NCBI GenBank assembly: GCA_951812505.1
Contig: CATOSI010000001.1
Span: 750,012 to 814,011, forward strand
DNA: 64,000 nucleotides
Direction of reading: 5' to 3'
DNA from: an uncultured Dehalococcoidia bacterium
GTDB lineage: Bacteria > Chloroflexota > Dehalococcoidia > Lucifugimonadales > UBA1123
Part shown: positions 1 through 35,600 of the stretch, piece by piece
Layout of the letters: every line of letters starts with the position of its first letter
How positions within the stretch are numbered: the first letter of the stretch is position 1
Notes under the pieces: model-generated
What the model was told of the DNA's origin: nothing
The model's input: only the letters and a program-made list of their open reading frames with translations
Database searches by the model: none
Translations under genes and position numbers: made by a program

Positions 1-309
1 ATATTCCCAAACGTCAGTGATCTTTAGAGCATACGCCGTTTTCACTCCCTCATAGTAGGCGTCAAAGTCGCCCTTGGTGACTCCGGCCTTGTCCGACACT
101 TTCTCCCATACTGTTTCCGGAGGGCCGCTCCACACCTGTTCGATGCGGAATCCCCCTCTAAGCTGTCTGACTGGGGTAGTGACGTATATCAATACTTCCT
201 GATTCTTCACGTAAATGCTTATACGTCTTCGCAACTCGGCAGTCTTGGTTCCATCGAAAATCTGGTCTGCGAAATATGGCTTCACTGAAAGTAGCAATTT
301 CGAAGTCAT
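1..309 (-). CDS. ASCH-domain protein (N-terminal part only; the gene runs off the window start)
   Basis: Absent from the ORF track because it has no stop in the window. My own minus-strand translation from the ATG at 309 reads MTSKLLLSVKPYFADQIFDGTKTAELRRRISIYVKNQEVLIYVTTPVRQLRGGFRIEQVWSGPPETVWEKV... This is an ASCH/PUA-like pattern (hK-P-x-a-x-x-I-x-x-G-x-K-x-x-E-x-R-R, then h-h-h-Y). It starts 8 nt after the stop of the upstream gene. Confidence 0.6.
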   Translation of the reverse strand, partial: MTSKLLLSVKPYFADQIFDGTKTAELRRRISIYVKNQEVLIYVTTPVRQLRGGFRIEQVWSGPPETVWEKVSDKAGVTKGDFDAYYEGVKTAYALKITDVWEY

Positions 310-317
310 GCCAAGCC

Positions 318-2330
318 TCACCAAGAAAACCCGAATTGAAACAGCCTTTTAAAGGTTGATCGGGGAACCTGGGATGGGGACTGCAACACTAGACTCGCAC
401 CTTCTTCCTCGTAAATCACTCGCAAGTGCTCCAGTGAAATTGGCCGTCTGAATGGAAAGGTGTGGGAAAACTTCAGAGCCATGATGTCAGTATCCGGGTC
501 GCCGTCGCACATGCTGTGGATCTGATTCCAGTCGAGGATGCCCAAACCACTGTATCTTCTGAAGAGATTCCTCGCGGTGCCTGTTTCGATGTCGTCCAGT
601 TGAGAAATAGCCACCACTTGCCTCTGACTTCCGCTCACATACCATAGTAGTCGTGCAGGTGACCTCAACATTCGATGATGTGTTTTTTTGCGATAGTAAA
701 CATTGTCCCATCGTAGCAAGACGTTAGGATTGCCACCGAATAAGTCGTTTGCGGCCTGCCTCTGGTCGACGAGGCTGAGTGCGAATCCTGGACGAATTGG
801 GATCATGAAGCACTCTTCGGACGATGAAAGTGCCAGTGGGGAACAGTGCCGTTGTAAGTCCAGATCTGACATTAAATGAAACTTGGAGCTAACTTCAGGT
901 GCGACTTCAAGAGTACGGGAAAGTGCTTCTTCCCGTCGAAGACTCTCAGAAAAGCAGAGGCGTACGAGTTTGTCTTCCGTAGCAACAAAGCCCATTCTTT
1001 CTAATTCTGGCTTGAGTCTCGGGAAGACGCCGGTGTCGGTGAACTCTACCTTCTCTGCACCAATCGCTACGGCCCTAGTGATGCTGTCGGATACCAAGAA
1101 TTGTTCAATCAGCGAGCGTTGACCGGAATTAGATCCCCTTGCCACGTGAATCGTAGCAACGGAGTCGCCGACGTCGCGCTCAATCACCCTTATTGCAATG
1201 GCCTCATCGCCAAACCAAAGCAACTCACAATCAAAACGAGTCGGGTCTGCCAGATAAAGTTCAAGTCTTCCTTTGAACTCACCTTTACCTTCGCCCTGAA
1301 TTAGGAATATCTCGTAGGGCAGACTGTTGAGATCATCGGAACCAAGACGCCTCCATCTGAAGTCAACCCCTGATACGAGTTCTGGGAGGTAGGCTGCAGC
1401 ATCCAAGAATTCGTGGACTCTTACAATCAGTTCGGATGGCGACAACACAGTCAGTTCAGTGAGGTCTGCTATTTCCTTCGCTTTTCGCAGGAGCCGACCA
1501 TCCCGAGTGACGAAATACCTCACACTAGAAGCAGCAGTCTTTGCCAGTTGCCTTACATCGGAGAGTGCCCTTGGCGTATTGGACGGTAGAATATCCTTAA
1601 GTGTAGACTCGAATGCTAGGGAAGAATCAATGCCATGGATCACGGTGGGAAAGTTCAGGATACTATTCCGCGCCGCCTCTCTTTGAGAGGTATCGTGGTT
1701 TCGGTCAATTTCAACCATCAACTCATCCGTAACCCGTAAGCTGATAGTTTCTGCCAAGAAATCAGAAAGTAATGCTTTCGAGAGTTCCTCATGGTTTCTA
1801 TCCACTGAAATCAGGTCAAAGAATATCTGGGCATCAATTACAACATCAAGGGTATCAACGCCGGAATCGGCTTCGAAAAGGCTGAGTTGATCCTCGTGTT
1901 CCACGGTCAAACACCAATGAGTCAAGAGATGGCCAGCCCTAGAGCGTCCAGCTCTCTCACCCAACGGTATGAAACCTAGTTTCGGCCACAGAGTATTTGC
2001 AGGAAAATCACGTCTGCAGTGAAGCTTAATTGTCTTCTGCGTCGTTGCTTTGCACCGTAATTCCTCAACAAGAGCCTTACCTGTGCCTCGGCCGCGGCTC
2101 ATCTCAGCAATACACAGATGAGCAATGCGAAAGGAATTCCTGTTAGCGCCGTATAGGAGATAACCGAGAAGTTCTCCTCGCTCGTTGTGCGCTCCCAATA
2201 CATTGCCGTTCAAAATGTAATCGCAGAGGGCAGCTTTCGGAAGGAATCCAAGAGTCGCACTGTTCTGCTTCATCAGACGATCAACGGCATCTATGTCGTC
2301 AACCGCCAAAGTTGAAATCACCGTTCCCAA
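318..2330 (-). CDS. Multidomain protein: N-terminal GNAT acetyltransferase, PIN-like domain, degenerate GNAT-like region, C-terminal ASCH/PUA-like domain
   Basis: 670-aa ORF with a TTG/GTG start. GNAT motif A is present (CIAEMSRGRGTGKALVEEL). The PIN-like stretch reads DVVIDAQIFFDL...VTDEL...YFVTRDGRLL. The C-terminus (MIPIRPGFALSLVD...LLWYVSGSQRQVVAISQLDDIE...ALKFSHTFPFRRPISL) parallels the downstream ASCH protein. G+C is visibly lower than in the adjacent fdhA. Confidence 0.7.
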   Translation of the reverse strand: MGTVISTLAVDDIDAVDRLMKQNSATLGFLPKAALCDYILNGNVLGAHNERGELLGYLLYGANRNSFRIAHLCIAEMSRGRGTGKALVEELRCKATTQKTIKLHCRRDFPANTLWPKLGFIPLGERAGRSRAGHLLTHWCLTVEHEDQLSLFEADSGVDTLDVVIDAQIFFDLISVDRNHEELSKALLSDFLAETISLRVTDELMVEIDRNHDTSQREAARNSILNFPTVIHGIDSSLAFESTLKDILPSNTPRALSDVRQLAKTAASSVRYFVTRDGRLLRKAKEIADLTELTVLSPSELIVRVHEFLDAAAYLPELVSGVDFRWRRLGSDDLNSLPYEIFLIQGEGKGEFKGRLELYLADPTRFDCELLWFGDEAIAIRVIERDVGDSVATIHVARGSNSGQRSLIEQFLVSDSITRAVAIGAEKVEFTDTGVFPRLKPELERMGFVATEDKLVRLCFSESLRREEALSRTLEVAPEVSSKFHLMSDLDLQRHCSPLALSSSEECFMIPIRPGFALSLVDQRQAANDLFGGNPNVLLRWDNVYYRKKTHHRMLRSPARLLWYVSGSQRQVVAISQLDDIETGTARNLFRRYSGLGILDWNQIHSMCDGDPDTDIMALKFSHTFPFRRPISLEHLRVIYEEEGASLVLQSPSQVPRSTFKRLFQFGFSW

Positions 2331-5202: not shown

Positions 5203-5558
5203 TTATAGCGAGTCATACAACGGCACGTGAATCAATCTATTCGTCATATCATCTGGATTGTTGCGTTCTGAGATACGCTGCAGATTCTCTACGCAAGTTC
5301 CTATGTATGTTAACATGGGTGCGAAAACAACGCCGTGGAAGACTATACCATCTCTCTGCCGTCTCGCAGCTTCTCTCAGAAATCTTTGTCGTGTGTAAAA
5401 AACACACGGCCTAACTCACCTGACCTGTCCAAGAGCGACGGGTCAGGAGTTCTATCCCGACCCTCCTCGCGCGCCATGATTACGTCTATATGGCGTGAGC
5501 GAAGGCCATCAGTGATTCGGTCGTCCACATTGTGGTCCATGTAGTAGGCGACAGGCAC
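5203..5558 (-). pseudogene. DUF5615-type PIN-like toxin candidate, interrupted by a 1-nt frameshift
   Basis: The track ORF 5376..5558 ends ...FFTHDKDF*. Shifting by one nucleotide at GATTTCTGAGAG gives an open continuation, LREAARRQRDGIVFHGVVFAPMLTYIGTCVENLQRISERNNPDDMTNRLIHVPLYDSL*, ending at TAA 5203-5205. Together the two pieces make about 118 aa, the expected family length. Confidence 0.55.
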
Positions 5559-5559
5559 T

Positions 5560-5952
5560 TCAGGCCGTGACTTTCTCTTCTGCCTTCGCTTTCCTTCGCT
5601 CCGCCGCCCTTGCCTTCATACGACGCTCGAACTCTCTCTGGGCAGGCTCGTTCTGTCGTCTCATTTCCTCGACGATTTCGTCGCCCTCTTTGATTAGCCG
5701 TTCCACCTCTTCCTTGTTGTCGTAGTAGTAGGCGAGGGCAGAGTGGACCTGACCCATGTTTAGGACCGGCCAATATTTACAGATTTCCTCGGGGCTCAGT
5801 TTGTGGTGGTTGGTAGCTATGACGATGAGTTCCACCTTTATGCGGGTTCCGGCTATCATGGCGCGTCCGTCTTTCATCATCAGGATGTGCCGGTATCCGG
5901 TGTCGCTTACTATGGGCTGCATTTTGCTGTCTACCCCGACTGCGTCTCTCAA
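5560..5952 (-). CDS. DUF433-domain protein (antitoxin-like partner of DUF5615)
   Basis: 130 aa. The DUF433-like core reads GRAMIAGTRIKVELIV...LSPEEICKYWPVLNMGQVHSALAYYYDNKEEV. It ends 1 nt before the DUF5615 start. The real start may be the internal Met at 5922. Confidence 0.7.
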   Translation of the reverse strand: MRDAVGVDSKMQPIVSDTGYRHILMMKDGRAMIAGTRIKVELIVIATNHHKLSPEEICKYWPVLNMGQVHSALAYYYDNKEEVERLIKEGDEIVEEMRRQNEPAQREFERRMKARAAERRKAKAEEKVTA

Positions 5953-20361: not shown

Positions 20362-21099
20362 TCATTCGCCGCTCAGCCGTTCCAATTCGGCTTCCAACTC
20401 GGCGACGCGTCGTTCGGCAACTGCGCGCGCTACGCGTTCGGACTCGACGCGTTGTTCGGCGGACTGTCGCGCGTCCTCCGACTCATTGAGCGTCGGAAGG
20501 TACTCCCCGCTTACAGGATCGCGGAAGCGTAGAATGCCGTCGTCCCACCAGAACTCCAGACCCAGCCTCTCGCTGTATCCCCAACGACGACCATCCGGCT
20601 CTACGGCTATCTCGATAGGCATATACCTATCATCCACAAGCATGTCGCCCGCCAGAGGCGCGTCGTGATACTCGCCGCCCGACGGGTCGAATCGCCAGTA
20701 TTCGCGCACGCCATATCCGGCGTAGCGTTCGCGCTTGTCGGTGTAGTCTTGTCTGCCCGTACCCTCGGAACCAACTTCCAGAACCAGATCGGGAGGCTTG
20801 CCCACCTCGCTTATCACGTAGCCGTTGCGGTGGAATATCCTCTCCGCGCCGTCCAACCCCTCGGCGAATACGCCGTCCGGATAGGGGCCGCTCCTGTCAT
20901 CCGCATCGGCCCACAGGTAGCCAAGCGCCCCCACAAAAACGTCGTCCCTGTCCTTGAACCACAAGCAGAGAGCCGAGGTGAAAGCGTTGATGCCTGGATA
21001 CTGCTTCATCATGTCAGGCTGCCTCGGGGGATCCGGCAGAGGCTTGACGTTCGAGTAGTCTGGTACTCGGATTTTTGTGAGTACACTCTGTGTAGCCAT
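20362..21099 (-). CDS. Uma2-family (DUF820) PD-(D/E)xK endonuclease-like protein with coiled-coil tail
   Basis: 245 aa. The core reads PDLVLEVGSEGTGRQDYTDKRERYAGYGVREYWRFDPSG. The C-terminus is Ala/Glu/Arg-rich. Confidence 0.82.
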   Translation of the reverse strand: MATQSVLTKIRVPDYSNVKPLPDPPRQPDMMKQYPGINAFTSALCLWFKDRDDVFVGALGYLWADADDRSGPYPDGVFAEGLDGAERIFHRNGYVISEVGKPPDLVLEVGSEGTGRQDYTDKRERYAGYGVREYWRFDPSGGEYHDAPLAGDMLVDDRYMPIEIAVEPDGRRWGYSERLGLEFWWDDGILRFRDPVSGEYLPTLNESEDARQSAEQRVESERVARAVAERRVAELEAELERLSGE

Positions 21100-21340: not shown

Positions 21341-22435
21341 TTACTTGATCACCGTCAGATACGGTGGCCTATCTCGATACCAATGGTAATATTCATCAGG
21401 ACTTATCGCCAAGAGTCGCATTATATTTTCATCCGAATACTCTAATTTTTCTCTATAAAATTGAACTATAGCCTTTACTAGGCGTGGTTCTTCCCAGGGA
21501 GGGTCTAATTCTATGGGCTCACGTGTGCGATACCCGTGAGACGAGAGACGCACAAACCAAGATCTACGCTGTCTGTCCGTCAAGTTTCCTAAACTATGTG
21601 CTCGCATAATGAGTGCCTGCATTGATACTTTCCAATACTGTTTTAGTGAGGCGAGTTTCTCGAATGTAAGATTAGTAAGTTGTCTTTTGATTTCTCGTTC
21701 AGGTGTCAAAAATTCTGCTGCGAATCTGTCTGCCTCTTCTTCACCAGTTGGTTCAGGGGATTTATAGTGCATGACTATATGCCCTATTTCATGGGCAAGG
21801 GTCCAACGAATACGATCTGGAGGCCTATCTGTGTTTAGGAAAAACAACGACGGTAAAGTAGGAACACGTTTACTGAATCCATCAATATGCCGAGTACCAA
21901 ATCTGCAAAGAAAAACTACTCCACCTGATCTCTCTACAATCTGTACTATATTTCTTACAGGTCCAGACGGAAGATGCCAGGCCGCTCTTACTATGGCGGC
22001 AATTCTCTCGACTGATCCGTCAAAATCATCAGGGTCATGAGATGGGAACATTGCATCCCCAATATCAACAGCTCTTAATAATTTTTCCAAATGTATCCGA
22101 CGAATCTCAGATTCAGCATAAGATTTATTAAGAATACTCACCTTAGCCTTACGACGTGCTCTGTGATATATTTCATCACCGCCAGCCCCATAAATCTCTC
22201 CCGTATATTGGAAGAAATTTTCTGGATAGCTAAGAACATCAGAAATTCTAGATATATCTTCACGGGAAGGGATGTTTATGCCAGCTTCTATCCGAGAAAT
22301 TTTCCCCTGCGAAAATCCAAGTGAACGGGCAAGCGAACTTTGCGACAGTCCCCTGGACTGTCGCGCCAGCAATAGCATCTCCGAATTAAATCTATTTAAG
22401 TCTTCTAATGAATCATCCTTCATTGGCAGTCTCAC
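21341..22435 (-). CDS. XRE-type HTH fused to an ImmA/IrrE (COG2856) zinc metallopeptidase
   Basis: 364 aa. The HTH reads LLLARQSRGLSQSSLARSLGFSQGKISRIEAG. The zinc site is the HExxH motif LAHEIGHIVMH plus a downstream EEEADRFAAEFL. The DNA is AT-rich; one hand-counted 100-nt sample gave about 36% G+C. Confidence 0.85.
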   Translation of the reverse strand: MRLPMKDDSLEDLNRFNSEMLLLARQSRGLSQSSLARSLGFSQGKISRIEAGINIPSREDISRISDVLSYPENFFQYTGEIYGAGGDEIYHRARRKAKVSILNKSYAESEIRRIHLEKLLRAVDIGDAMFPSHDPDDFDGSVERIAAIVRAAWHLPSGPVRNIVQIVERSGGVVFLCRFGTRHIDGFSKRVPTLPSLFFLNTDRPPDRIRWTLAHEIGHIVMHYKSPEPTGEEEADRFAAEFLTPEREIKRQLTNLTFEKLASLKQYWKVSMQALIMRAHSLGNLTDRQRRSWFVRLSSHGYRTREPIELDPPWEEPRLVKAIVQFYREKLEYSDENIMRLLAISPDEYYHWYRDRPPYLTVIK

Positions 22436-23060
22436 TCGTGACTCGGGCCCTTATTGTCGGAGTGATGTCATCTTCAGGAGGATGTGTAACTAAATCTGTA
22501 ATTTGTGCAAGTGAATCATCGTAGAGTTGCCATGTCCAGATATTACGATTTCCATCAGGCATCGTCACATATATAGCGGCGGCGGATGTTCGCGTAGGAT
22601 TGAGAAGATAGCCTAATGTAAGACTGGCAACTGGGGGCATATGTGGCAATTCACTCTGATAATCTTGGTGGTTAAACAAAACCGCTTGTTGAGTTGGGAT
22701 ATTACGGGACCTCATGTTCTCATCTAATTTCTTGAACCGCAGTGTTGCCGATAGTGCCCCATCAGACACGTAGTAGTAATACAGCCCTTGACTGTACCTA
22801 GGTATGAACTGATCCAAACAGCTAAGTCTATCACTTGCGAGACCAATCATTATGTCGTGGATTATGCTGGCGTCGGAACGCTTCCCGAGTCGGTAGCGTA
22901 CAGAAGCAAAATCTTGAGTGTACAATCTAACAGAGTCAGTAGGTATTCTAAAGAGGATACTCTCATGTGGAGCAAGAAGTTCCATCGCTTGGTCTTTGCG
23001 CATATGCGTCATGATGACATTCCTCTGAAGAGTGATTCTATGGATTATATATATATCCAT
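22413..23060 (-). CDS. Hypothetical protein (no recognisable domain), translationally coupled upstream partner of the HTH-ImmA/IrrE gene
   Basis: 215-aa ORF; an alternative start is the Met at 23012. It overlaps the downstream gene by 23 nt and has the same AT-rich composition. Confidence 0.55.
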   Translation of the reverse strand: MDIYIIHRITLQRNVIMTHMRKDQAMELLAPHESILFRIPTDSVRLYTQDFASVRYRLGKRSDASIIHDIMIGLASDRLSCLDQFIPRYSQGLYYYYVSDGALSATLRFKKLDENMRSRNIPTQQAVLFNHQDYQSELPHMPPVASLTLGYLLNPTRTSAAAIYVTMPDGNRNIWTWQLYDDSLAQITDLVTHPPEDDITPTIRARVTSETANEG

Positions 23061-35307: not shown

Positions 35308-35526
35308 CTATTATAATATCTCCATTATAAGCTACGAGAATCCAGTAGAAGGCATTGATGCATATATGTGAATATTTTTATACAGAATGGCGATTCATGT
35401 AGTTGCGATTTCGATCTGGCGTATCAGTCGACGGCATACATATCTAACAATTGCAATATTCATTAAGATTATTCAGACAGGTCGGTGGGGTAGTATGGCG
35501 GACAATGCCGGTCGGAGCGAGGGGAG

Positions 35527-35600
35527 CGTCCCTGGCAGGATTCGAACCCGCGACCCGCTGCTTAGAAGGCAGCCGCTCTATCCAGCTGAGCTACAGGGAC
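35527..35600 (-). tRNA. tRNA-Arg (anticodon UCU)
   Basis: Folded by hand as a cloverleaf. The acceptor stem is GTCCCTG/CAGGGAC and the D stem GCTC/GAGC. The anticodon stem is GCTGC/GCAGC with loop CTTCTAA. The T arm is GCGGG-TTCGAAT-CCTGC, and the discriminator is G. CCA is not encoded. Confidence 0.88.

Follow-up and report, generated by a model that had tools for sequence, protein, structure and literature searches.

One major class of proteins in the literature is "(PIN)-GNAT-EVE"; nearly all of its operons also encode an ASCH protein, and many an AAA ATPase (Bell et al. 2020, PMC7641849, citing Iyer et al. 2013). These modules were linked to type I restriction-modification (R-M) and other defence systems and predicted to be toxin-antitoxin (TA) systems, and none of them had been characterised experimentally at the time of that publication (PMC7641849). 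PADLOC defines a candidate system, PDC-M11, which appears, in the literature found, only in a list of the predicted systems of an E. coli strain. In lambdoid coliphages, a pair of genes lies between cI and kil, and in the record of phage PhiR47_2 (GenBank PV340567.1, L088 2947-4375) its members are labelled "GevT toxin" and "GevA antitoxin". Here we describe a locus of two genes at the beginning of a 64,000-nucleotide stretch of DNA (the window) from an uncultured Dehalococcoidia bacterium. The locus encodes a 670-amino-acid (aa) protein, which joins a GNAT acetyltransferase domain, a PIN domain, a second, degenerate GNAT fold and an ASCH-like domain, and a small ASCH protein. On balance, we read it as a horizontally acquired two-gene conflict module, TA-like and probably anti-phage, whose mechanism we infer to be directed at RNA.

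Both proteins were recognized by the PDC-M11 profiles of PADLOC, the large one as PDC-M11A (expectation value (E) 1.7e-16 for aa 163-322 and 3.7e-7 for aa 483-637) and the small one as PDC-M11B (E 6.9e-28). The same profiles identified GevT as PDC-M11A (2e-133), GevA as PDC-M11B (7e-52) and a 512-aa protein of Rhizobium etli as PDC-M11A (4e-120); the PDC-M11A profiles also match partner ASCH proteins. Hidden Markov models (HMMs) of the large-protein family matched the R. etli protein collinearly (PIN 5e-8, internal GNAT 1e-5, ASCH-like 3e-7), and the HMM of the small ASCH protein matched GevA (2e-33). The link to GevT goes via the PADLOC profiles, the R. etli intermediate and the partner protein. 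Judged by these profile matches, the locus can be assigned with high confidence to a family comprising PDC-M11, (PIN)-GNAT-EVE plus ASCH, and GevT-GevA. The existing annotation of the large-protein family is only "GNAT family N-acetyltransferase". An earlier note on this DNA, made from the letters alone, had not recognized the architecture as a described system. This claim of novelty fails because the architecture had already been described, as PDC-M11 in PADLOC, by Bell et al. 2020 (PMC7641849) and in PV340567.1.

Domains of the large protein and its small ASCH partner

The features of the locus, in window coordinates, are the following.

318..2330 (-): large gene, 670 aa, TTG start, stop codon 318-320; GNAT, PIN, degenerate GNAT fold and ASCH-like domain; homologue of PDC-M11A and PIN-GNAT-EVE proteins
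1881..2330 (-): N-terminal GNAT domain, aa 1-150; its acetyl-CoA motif A is canonical
1416..1859 (-): PIN nuclease domain, aa 158-305
891..1403 (-): second, internal GNAT fold, aa 310-480, whose loop for acetyl-CoA binding is degenerate
321..848 (-): C-terminal ASCH-like (PUA-superfamily) domain, aa 495-670
310..317 (-): intergenic spacer, 8 nucleotides (nt)
1..309 (-): small ASCH gene, first 103 of 141 codons inside the window; homologue of ZmASCH, GevA and PDC-M11B

The four domains that the earlier note had called in the 670-aa open reading frame (ORF) were all found again by Pfam, AlphaFold/Foldseek and profiles, and all four calls are therefore correct. Conservation was assessed in an alignment of 127 diverse full-length relatives of the large protein, reaching down to about 29% identity.

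The N-terminal GNAT domain matched Acetyltransf_10 (E 6.8e-7) and Acetyltransf_7 (E 4.8e-6) of Pfam, both above the curated cut-offs, at aa 38-126, and its motif A reads RGRGTGKALVEEL at aa 79-91 of the window translation. Within the motif R-x-x-G-x-[A/G], position 79 is Arg in 113 members and Gln in 8, Gly82 is present in 115, and position 84 is Ala or Gly in 116. This pattern suggests that the domain is very likely an active acyltransferase. At E<=1, only seven entries of the PDB matched by sequence, all generic acetyltransferases and none named TacT, AtaT, KacT or ItaT, and NCBIfam indicated a weak similarity to RimI. The isoelectric points of the individual domains of the large protein were uninformative. 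In one relative (L085 7540-9563 and L086 4752-6775), the counterpart of the N-terminal GNAT is a separate gene of 154 aa (41% identical, E 6e-28), which overlaps the PIN-GNAT-ASCH gene by ATGA. Because it occurs there as a gene of its own, the extra GNAT is, by its gene structure, a functional unit in its own right, found both fused and separate.

The PIN domain carries the motifs VVIDAQIFFDL (aa 163-173), VTDEL (aa 200-204) and FVTRDGRLL (aa 273-281). The Pfam family PIN_3 matched the 670-aa protein weakly (E 0.011) and the distant full-length members P0180 and P0260 with 34.2 and 29.5 bits, above the 27-bit cut-off and with full profile coverage. A profile of the PIN region gave no match to PDB sequences at E<=10; the domain is called from the matches of family members to Pfam, from PADLOC and from its invariant acidic residues. 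Among the 127 members, D166, E203 and D258 occur in all, D277 in 126, T275 in 125, and E207 in 122 with Asp in the other five. An acidic quartet in PIN domains is typical of VapC-like RNases. Given this conservation, the domain is very likely an active nuclease.

The internal domain gave no Pfam match either in the 670-aa protein or in the family members tested. Its AlphaFold model (aa 305-487, built on 35 homologues) reached a pLDDT of 87.8, and Foldseek found 286 matches in the PDB (E<=1e-3), of which the 50 listed are without exception acetyltransferases of the GNAT fold, the best being PaiA (1TIQ, 4e-6). The internal and N-terminal GNAT domains also matched each other in hhalign (E 1e-4). 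R398 is conserved, and the positions +3 and +5 from it are variable among the 127 members and are not Gly or Ala. To judge from these positions, the internal fold has lost the acetyl-CoA motif.

The C-terminal domain was modelled over aa 486-670 with a pLDDT of 78.9. ZmASCH (5GUS/5GUQ) was its best Foldseek match (E 2e-9, TM-score 0.80), followed by EVE, THYN1 and YTH readers; the EVE matches were weaker (about 1e-4), and YqfB structures matched only weakly (E about 0.05). W563, S576 and F621 are present in 127/127 members and Y564, which corresponds to Y47 of ZmASCH, in 126/127. The Q650-S651-P652 motif is retained, so that the equivalents of Gln127 and Ser128 of ZmASCH are kept, which like Tyr47 belong to its nucleic-acid cleft. 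The Lys and Glu of the GxKxxExR octapeptide are missing under either alignment: the Lys position is occupied by Pro, Glu or Thr, or falls in a low-confidence insertion, and the Glu position by a hydrophobic residue or Tyr. Because this Lys-Glu dyad is absent, the domain is predicted to be a non-catalytic reader of nucleic acids rather than an enzyme. Together, the GNAT fold that has decayed and the ASCH-like domain that lacks the dyad are best understood as modules which hold or read the substrate.

The small gene starts 8 nt downstream of the large one and is cut by the window edge after 103 codons, as the earlier note had described. The stop codon of the large gene is TGA at 320-318 and the ATG of the small gene lies at 309-307; GAGG overlaps the stop codon, 6 nt ahead of this ATG, and AGGA lies 7 nt upstream of the TTG start of the large gene, where the N-termini of homologues align. 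In public metagenome assemblies, we found a 670-aa protein (P0001) identical to the large protein. Contig L001 carries the identical large protein with the same flanking genes and the complete small gene (141 aa, L001:12022-12447).

Over its full length, the small protein matched PDB ZmASCH with E 6e-16; its Pfam ASCH score (21.0-21.1 bits) was just under the 21.2-bit cut-off. It contains Y47, Q127 and S128 of ZmASCH as well as the GxKxxExR octapeptide, with Glu at the position where the YqfB type has Thr or Ser. K22, E25 and R27 were found in 78/78 related loci and Y42 in 79/79, and Q123 and S124 are invariant. The gene of GevA in phage PhiR47_2 was matched by tblastn with 41% identity (E 5e-24), and the Lys-Glu-Arg, Tyr and PPQS motifs recur in GevA. 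At least seven other E. coli phage records among the matches listed contain a near-identical ASCH gene.

ZmASCH is a Mg-dependent RNase specific for single-stranded RNA, which bound single-stranded DNA without degrading it, and its Tyr47, Lys53 and Ser128 matter in binding and cleavage (PMC5615036). The Lys-Glu pair of GKER-type ASCH proteins was reported to be essential for the deacetylation of N4-acetylcytidine (ac4C) in tRNA, and ZmASCH stripped ac4C34 from tRNA in vitro (2026 preprint 10.64898/2026.02.27.708502). Judged by its residues, the small partner is a catalytically intact ZmASCH-type protein. Since the catalytic ASCH site is kept in every locus examined, including GevA, the partner apparently has to catalyse a reaction and not just to bind.

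At the sequence level, the small protein is a paralogue of the C-terminal domain of the large one. The likeness between them that the earlier note had pointed out was borne out by BLASTP (E 1e-4) and hhalign (E 2e-5 over 123 columns; a PIN control gave E 0.6). The division into reader and eraser that it had suggested likewise fits the residues: the stand-alone ASCH protein keeps Lys-Glu-Arg in 78/78 loci and the fused domain has lost Lys-Glu.

Pairing, distribution and genomic neighbourhoods

In all 78 related genome loci, the small gene lies directly downstream of the large gene on the same strand, so the co-occurrence of a GNAT-PIN-ASCH protein with a second ASCH protein, raised in the earlier note as a point to check, is general among them. 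The junctions are mostly 4-nt overlaps (22 loci), 10-nt overlaps (7) or 2-nt gaps (6). These loci, obtained by scanning one genome per species, come from Latescibacterota, Poribacteria, Dehalococcoidia and other Chloroflexota, Nitrospirales, Binatia, Verrucomicrobiales, Alpha- and Gammaproteobacteria, Vicinamibacterales and Spirochaetia. The scan covered 185,579 genomes with two peptide patterns that find close relatives only and yielded 91 confirmed stretches, patchily distributed over about ten phyla. When representative clusters (50% identity) were searched with aa 155-670, 1,398 of them matched at E<=1e-3, and most of the best 150 of these 1,398 have an N-terminal extension of about 160 aa. 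The hosts of the loci L005-L082 (Poribacteria, Latescibacterota, Dehalococcoidia, Nitrospirales, Caldilineaceae, Binatia) resemble a marine sponge-symbiont community, as far as their names tell.

The G+C content of the two genes is 0.48-0.51 and that of the flanking genes about 0.58-0.65, and the boundaries of the low-GC island coincide exactly with the two genes. The contrast stated in the earlier note therefore held for the module (48-51%), and its value of 68% for the surroundings was too high, the neighbours having 58-65%. In 59/61 loci, the pair lies more than 3 G+C points below its flanks (mean 0.485 vs 0.577), nearly all differences ranging from 3 to 19 points. The pair thus looks horizontally acquired by its composition, in agreement with the suggestion of an acquired add-on. 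Scans for promoters and terminators of the module gave no signal above the shuffled expectation, and no suggestive direct or inverted repeats (att site, transposon ends) flank it.

The large gene is interrupted in 14/78 loci, by five insertions, one internal deletion and eight frameshifts, the last being possibly long-read assembly errors. Insertion sequences (IS) with IS256/Mutator, ISL3 and IS630-like transposases, confirmed by Pfam, were found independently in the large gene of different species (L057 11486-12813, L064 8713-10000, L068 8837-10000), and insertions of 1.7-2.1 kb with ORFs lacking a Pfam match in L062 and L074. The IS elements and the deletion in the large gene show that the pair can be dispensed with. 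The small gene is intact in 77/78 loci. The disruption bias (14 large vs 1 small) was considered as evidence of toxicity and rejected, since it is not significant at a 4.7-fold length ratio and the frameshifts may be sequencing artefacts.

The neighbourhoods vary, and no conserved translation or RNA-processing operon was found around the pair. Nine of the 93 immediate neighbour ORFs encode a type IIG R-M enzyme, and FRG-domain proteins, type I specificity subunits and helicases were found among the others. Defence islands surround the pair in L092, L083, L090 and L091; in L092, it is flanked by an Eco57I-like methylase together with an SNF2/PLD protein and, at the opposite end, by a large helicase. 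On Calothrix and Nostoc plasmids, tblastn revealed full-length relatives of 710 aa, accompanied by an ASCH protein and an AAA ATPase, the Calothrix homologue being located between an Eco29kI R-M system and a McrC-like gene. On the R. etli plasmid, a NACHT gene adjoins the genes of a helix-turn-helix (HTH)-ASCH protein, the 512-aa "GNAT" protein and an AAA ATPase; in Rhizobium sp. NXC24, a SIR2 gene adjoins those of a 351-aa "EVE domain" protein and its ASCH neighbour. The association with defence genes is thus seen in a subset of loci; most loci, including the window, have no adjacent R-M gene. As to the enrichment beside defence genes that the earlier note had proposed to look for, defence neighbours were seen in that subset (9/93 type IIG neighbours, L092, L083, L090, L091) and not in the window itself.

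Some other parts of the surrounding DNA deserve mention. A DUF5615 (PIN-like) and DUF433 pair, a putative TA system with a G+C of about 0.53, lies between formate dehydrogenase subunit genes at window 5376-5952 (-), and a BrnT-toxin/CopG-antitoxin pair at L001 16723-17342, about 4 kb past the left window edge, beyond MFS and ilvD-like genes. A second low-GC island (window 21341-23060 (-), with a neighbouring ORF at 20362-21099 (-); G+C 0.44-0.46 vs about 0.59) contains a 364-aa ORF whose N-terminal segment is HTH-like and which carries the zinc-peptidase motif 'HEIGH'; this ORF, by eye putatively ImmA/IrrE-like, overlaps a 215-aa ORF without known function. The sole RNA gene detected in the window is a tRNA-Arg(TCT) at 35526-35600 (-). 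It may mark an integration site, because the G+C dips locally, to about 0.52 at 35-37 kb.

Proposed function and alternatives

A conflict role, TA-like or defensive, as put forward in the earlier note, is the best reading of the obligate pairing, the mobility, the defence context and the labels of the family, and we consider a TA or defence role of the locus to be fairly probable. In the mechanism that we propose, the large protein would be the toxic effector. Its ASCH-like and dead GNAT domains would hold the substrate, an RNA (tRNA or some other RNA of translation being the likeliest), perhaps by recognising a modified base; the N-terminal GNAT would acylate this substrate or a bound aminoacyl group, the PIN domain would cleave the RNA, and the outcome would be translation arrest in cells that are infected or carry no plasmid. 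The small ASCH protein would serve as the antidote, either by binding the large protein via the paralogous domain or by hydrolysing the acyl mark written by the GNAT. The role of an antidote is proposed because the 41%-identical phage homologue is named 'GevA antitoxin', and the enzymatic variant is favoured because the catalytic dyad is invariant. RNA acylation combined with cleavage as the specific mechanism is a tentative proposal, about which we are more doubtful than confident.

DarT/DarG consists of a writer toxin, which ADP-ribosylates DNA, and a macrodomain eraser antitoxin. By analogy, the locus might be a reversible RNA-acylation immunity module, in which the GNAT writes a mark (e.g. 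ac4C on tRNA or rRNA), the dead ASCH domain reads it and licenses the PIN domain, and the GevA-like ASCH protein erases it. This elaboration is speculative and in our opinion improbable. Were it true, the module would be the first TA or defence system built on nucleobase acetylation and would provide a physiological role for the prokaryotic ASCH 'erasers'. The logic of writer, reader, nuclease and eraser would then mean new chemistry in bacterial immunity; otherwise, the locus is one more divergent member of a candidate family.

Several observations weigh against a conflict module of the proposed kind. The neighbours of the pair in the window are formate dehydrogenase and MFS transporter genes and form no defence island, and no close relatives of the large protein were found among INPHARED phages and IMG/VR contigs. 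In the N-terminal GNAT, W115 is an invariant Trp at the place where motif B usually has the general-acid Tyr. ZmASCH was inactive on the free ac4C nucleoside and in vivo (preprint 10.64898/2026.02.27.708502). The eight frameshifts in the large gene may be errors of long-read assembly. As to the relatives, PDC-M11 is a computational candidate system only, GevT matched the large protein in BLASTP only with E 1.3, and the family HMMs miss the GevT-type 350-aa proteins. The toxin and antitoxin labels come from a GenBank annotation; a literature search for GevT, GevA, GevAT or an ASCH antitoxin found no relevant paper, and no biochemistry was found for any member of the family.

The same genes could restrict modified DNA. 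The ASCH-like domains would then read hypermodified phage bases, the GNAT would acetylate a DNA base, the PIN domain or a neighbouring restriction enzyme would attack the DNA, and the small ASCH protein would be a second reader or a regulator. DNA-base acetylation has been proposed for GNAT-EVE proteins (Iyer et al. 2013, via PMC7641849), and ASCH-HsdS and HTH-ASCH fusions have been reported, whose ASCH domain was argued to bind modified DNA (PMC7641849). The R. etli partner is such an HTH-ASCH fusion, Foldseek also returned EVE and THYN1 readers of 5-methylcytosine DNA, and the ASCH-like BapA is a DNA glycosylase of 5-hydroxymethylcytosine that defends against T-even phages (preprint 10.64898/2026.02.25.707755). 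The pair often adjoins R-M and McrBC-like genes, although neither the window nor most other loci have an adjacent R-M gene. The residues and the closest solved structure point to RNA instead: the PIN_3-type acidic quartet is of the kind typical of VapC-like RNases, the small partner keeps the dyad of tRNA-deacetylating proteins, and ZmASCH, the closest solved relative of both ASCH modules, degraded single-stranded RNA and not single-stranded DNA (PMC5615036). We regard the restriction of modified DNA as unlikely.

A purely selfish addiction cassette, persisting by post-segregational killing and horizontal transfer without any anti-phage function, would account for a compact low-GC pair among metabolic genes, with the TA pairs DUF433/DUF5615 and BrnT/CopG nearby, for the toxin and antitoxin labels of homologues and for a large gene that is often inactivated beside an intact small one. 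The last point loses its force, however, since the excess of disruptions (14 vs 1) is not significant at the 4.7-fold length ratio. Such a cassette does not explain why the pair often lies beside R-M and other defence genes in several phyla, why PADLOC chose it as a defence candidate, or why in lambdoid phages it occupies a prophage exclusion slot, the position between cI and kil being that of rexAB in phage lambda. We consider pure addiction rather improbable. A housekeeping role in RNA modification or turnover (e.g. a writer and an eraser of tRNA or rRNA acetylation with a quality-control nuclease), which could be imagined because ASCH proteins act as tRNA ac4C erasers (preprint 10.64898/2026.02.27.708502), because GNAT and PUA-like domains are common in RNA-modification enzymes (PMC7641849) and because of the weak RimI similarity, is highly improbable in view of the patchy distribution (91 stretches in 185,579 species genomes, close relatives only), the systematically foreign G+C, the variable neighbourhoods without a conserved translation or RNA-processing operon, the dispensability indicated by IS insertions and a deletion, and the absence of any TmcA-type helicase or tRNA-binding domain detectable by Pfam.

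The present analysis joins four things that had so far been listed separately: PDC-M11, the PIN-GNAT-EVE plus ASCH operons, the GevT/GevA labels and tRNA deacetylation by ASCH proteins. The family is large and extends over many uncultured phyla. Its residue pattern, in which GNAT, PIN and the partner ASCH protein are intact and the reader ASCH domain is dead, provides a concrete hypothesis. What appears to be new is the variant with GNAT, PIN, degenerate GNAT and dyad-less ASCH-like domains and the size of its clade, the occurrence of the extra GNAT in fused and split form and the fact that the internal GNAT has decayed. Equating PDC-M11 explicitly with PIN-GNAT-EVE plus ASCH and with GevAT also appears to be new, as does the contrast, at the level of residues, between a dead reader and an intact partner ASCH.

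Comparison with known systems

The resemblance to DarT/DarG is one of analogy only: if the reading as a reversible RNA-acylation module is right, a modifying toxin would here too be neutralised by an enzyme that removes the mark. Folds and chemistry are unrelated. TmcA/NAT10 differs in having a helicase/ATPase and a tRNA-binding domain, neither of which was found in the large protein (only generic GNAT families and PIN_3 in Pfam). The four conserved acidic residues of the PIN domain are shared with VapBC. In that system, however, the PIN protein stands alone, with about 130 aa, and a VapB-type antitoxin is encoded upstream of it, whereas the PIN domain of the window is internal to a 670-aa protein and no VapB-like gene accompanies it.

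The toxins TacT, AtaT, KacT and ItaT, which acetylate aminoacyl-tRNA (cited in PMC7641849), likewise have an acetyl-CoA-type GNAT in a two-gene conflict module. In contrast to these type II systems, the partner in the window is a downstream ASCH protein and not an upstream ribbon-helix-helix/DUF1778 antitoxin, and the GNAT is one of four domains.

Among ASCH proteins, YqfB is shorter (about 103 aa) and has a GK[T/S]R octapeptide, whereas the small protein has 141 aa and Glu at the variable position. ZmASCH is closer, being homologous to the small protein over its full length and sharing its fold with the C-terminal domain of the large one. It was studied as a stand-alone protein, with no partner described in the available part of the source (PMC5615036); the ASCH protein of the window is the obligate partner of a multidomain enzyme.

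GevT/GevA shows the same order of a large and then a small gene, with an overlap, and both pairs are PDC-M11. GevT has only 357 aa with GNAT and PUA-like domains and contains neither a PIN domain nor the extra GNAT, and it is carried by lambdoid phage, whereas the clade of the window was not found in phage collections. PDC-M11 as such consists of a large PUA-containing protein followed by a small ASCH protein, and both window proteins match its profiles. The PDC-M11A profiles, which span 357-501 positions, do not include an N-terminal GNAT and align only to the PIN and C-terminal parts of the large protein, not to the internal GNAT.

The (PIN)-GNAT-EVE modules share with the locus the order PIN, GNAT and PUA-like domain in one polypeptide and an ASCH gene in the same operon. 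The window pair differs from them in having no adjacent AAA_17 ATPase gene, in an internal GNAT without the acetyl-CoA loop, in a C-terminal fold that is nearer to ASCH than to EVE, and in the extra canonical GNAT domain placed ahead of the PIN domain.

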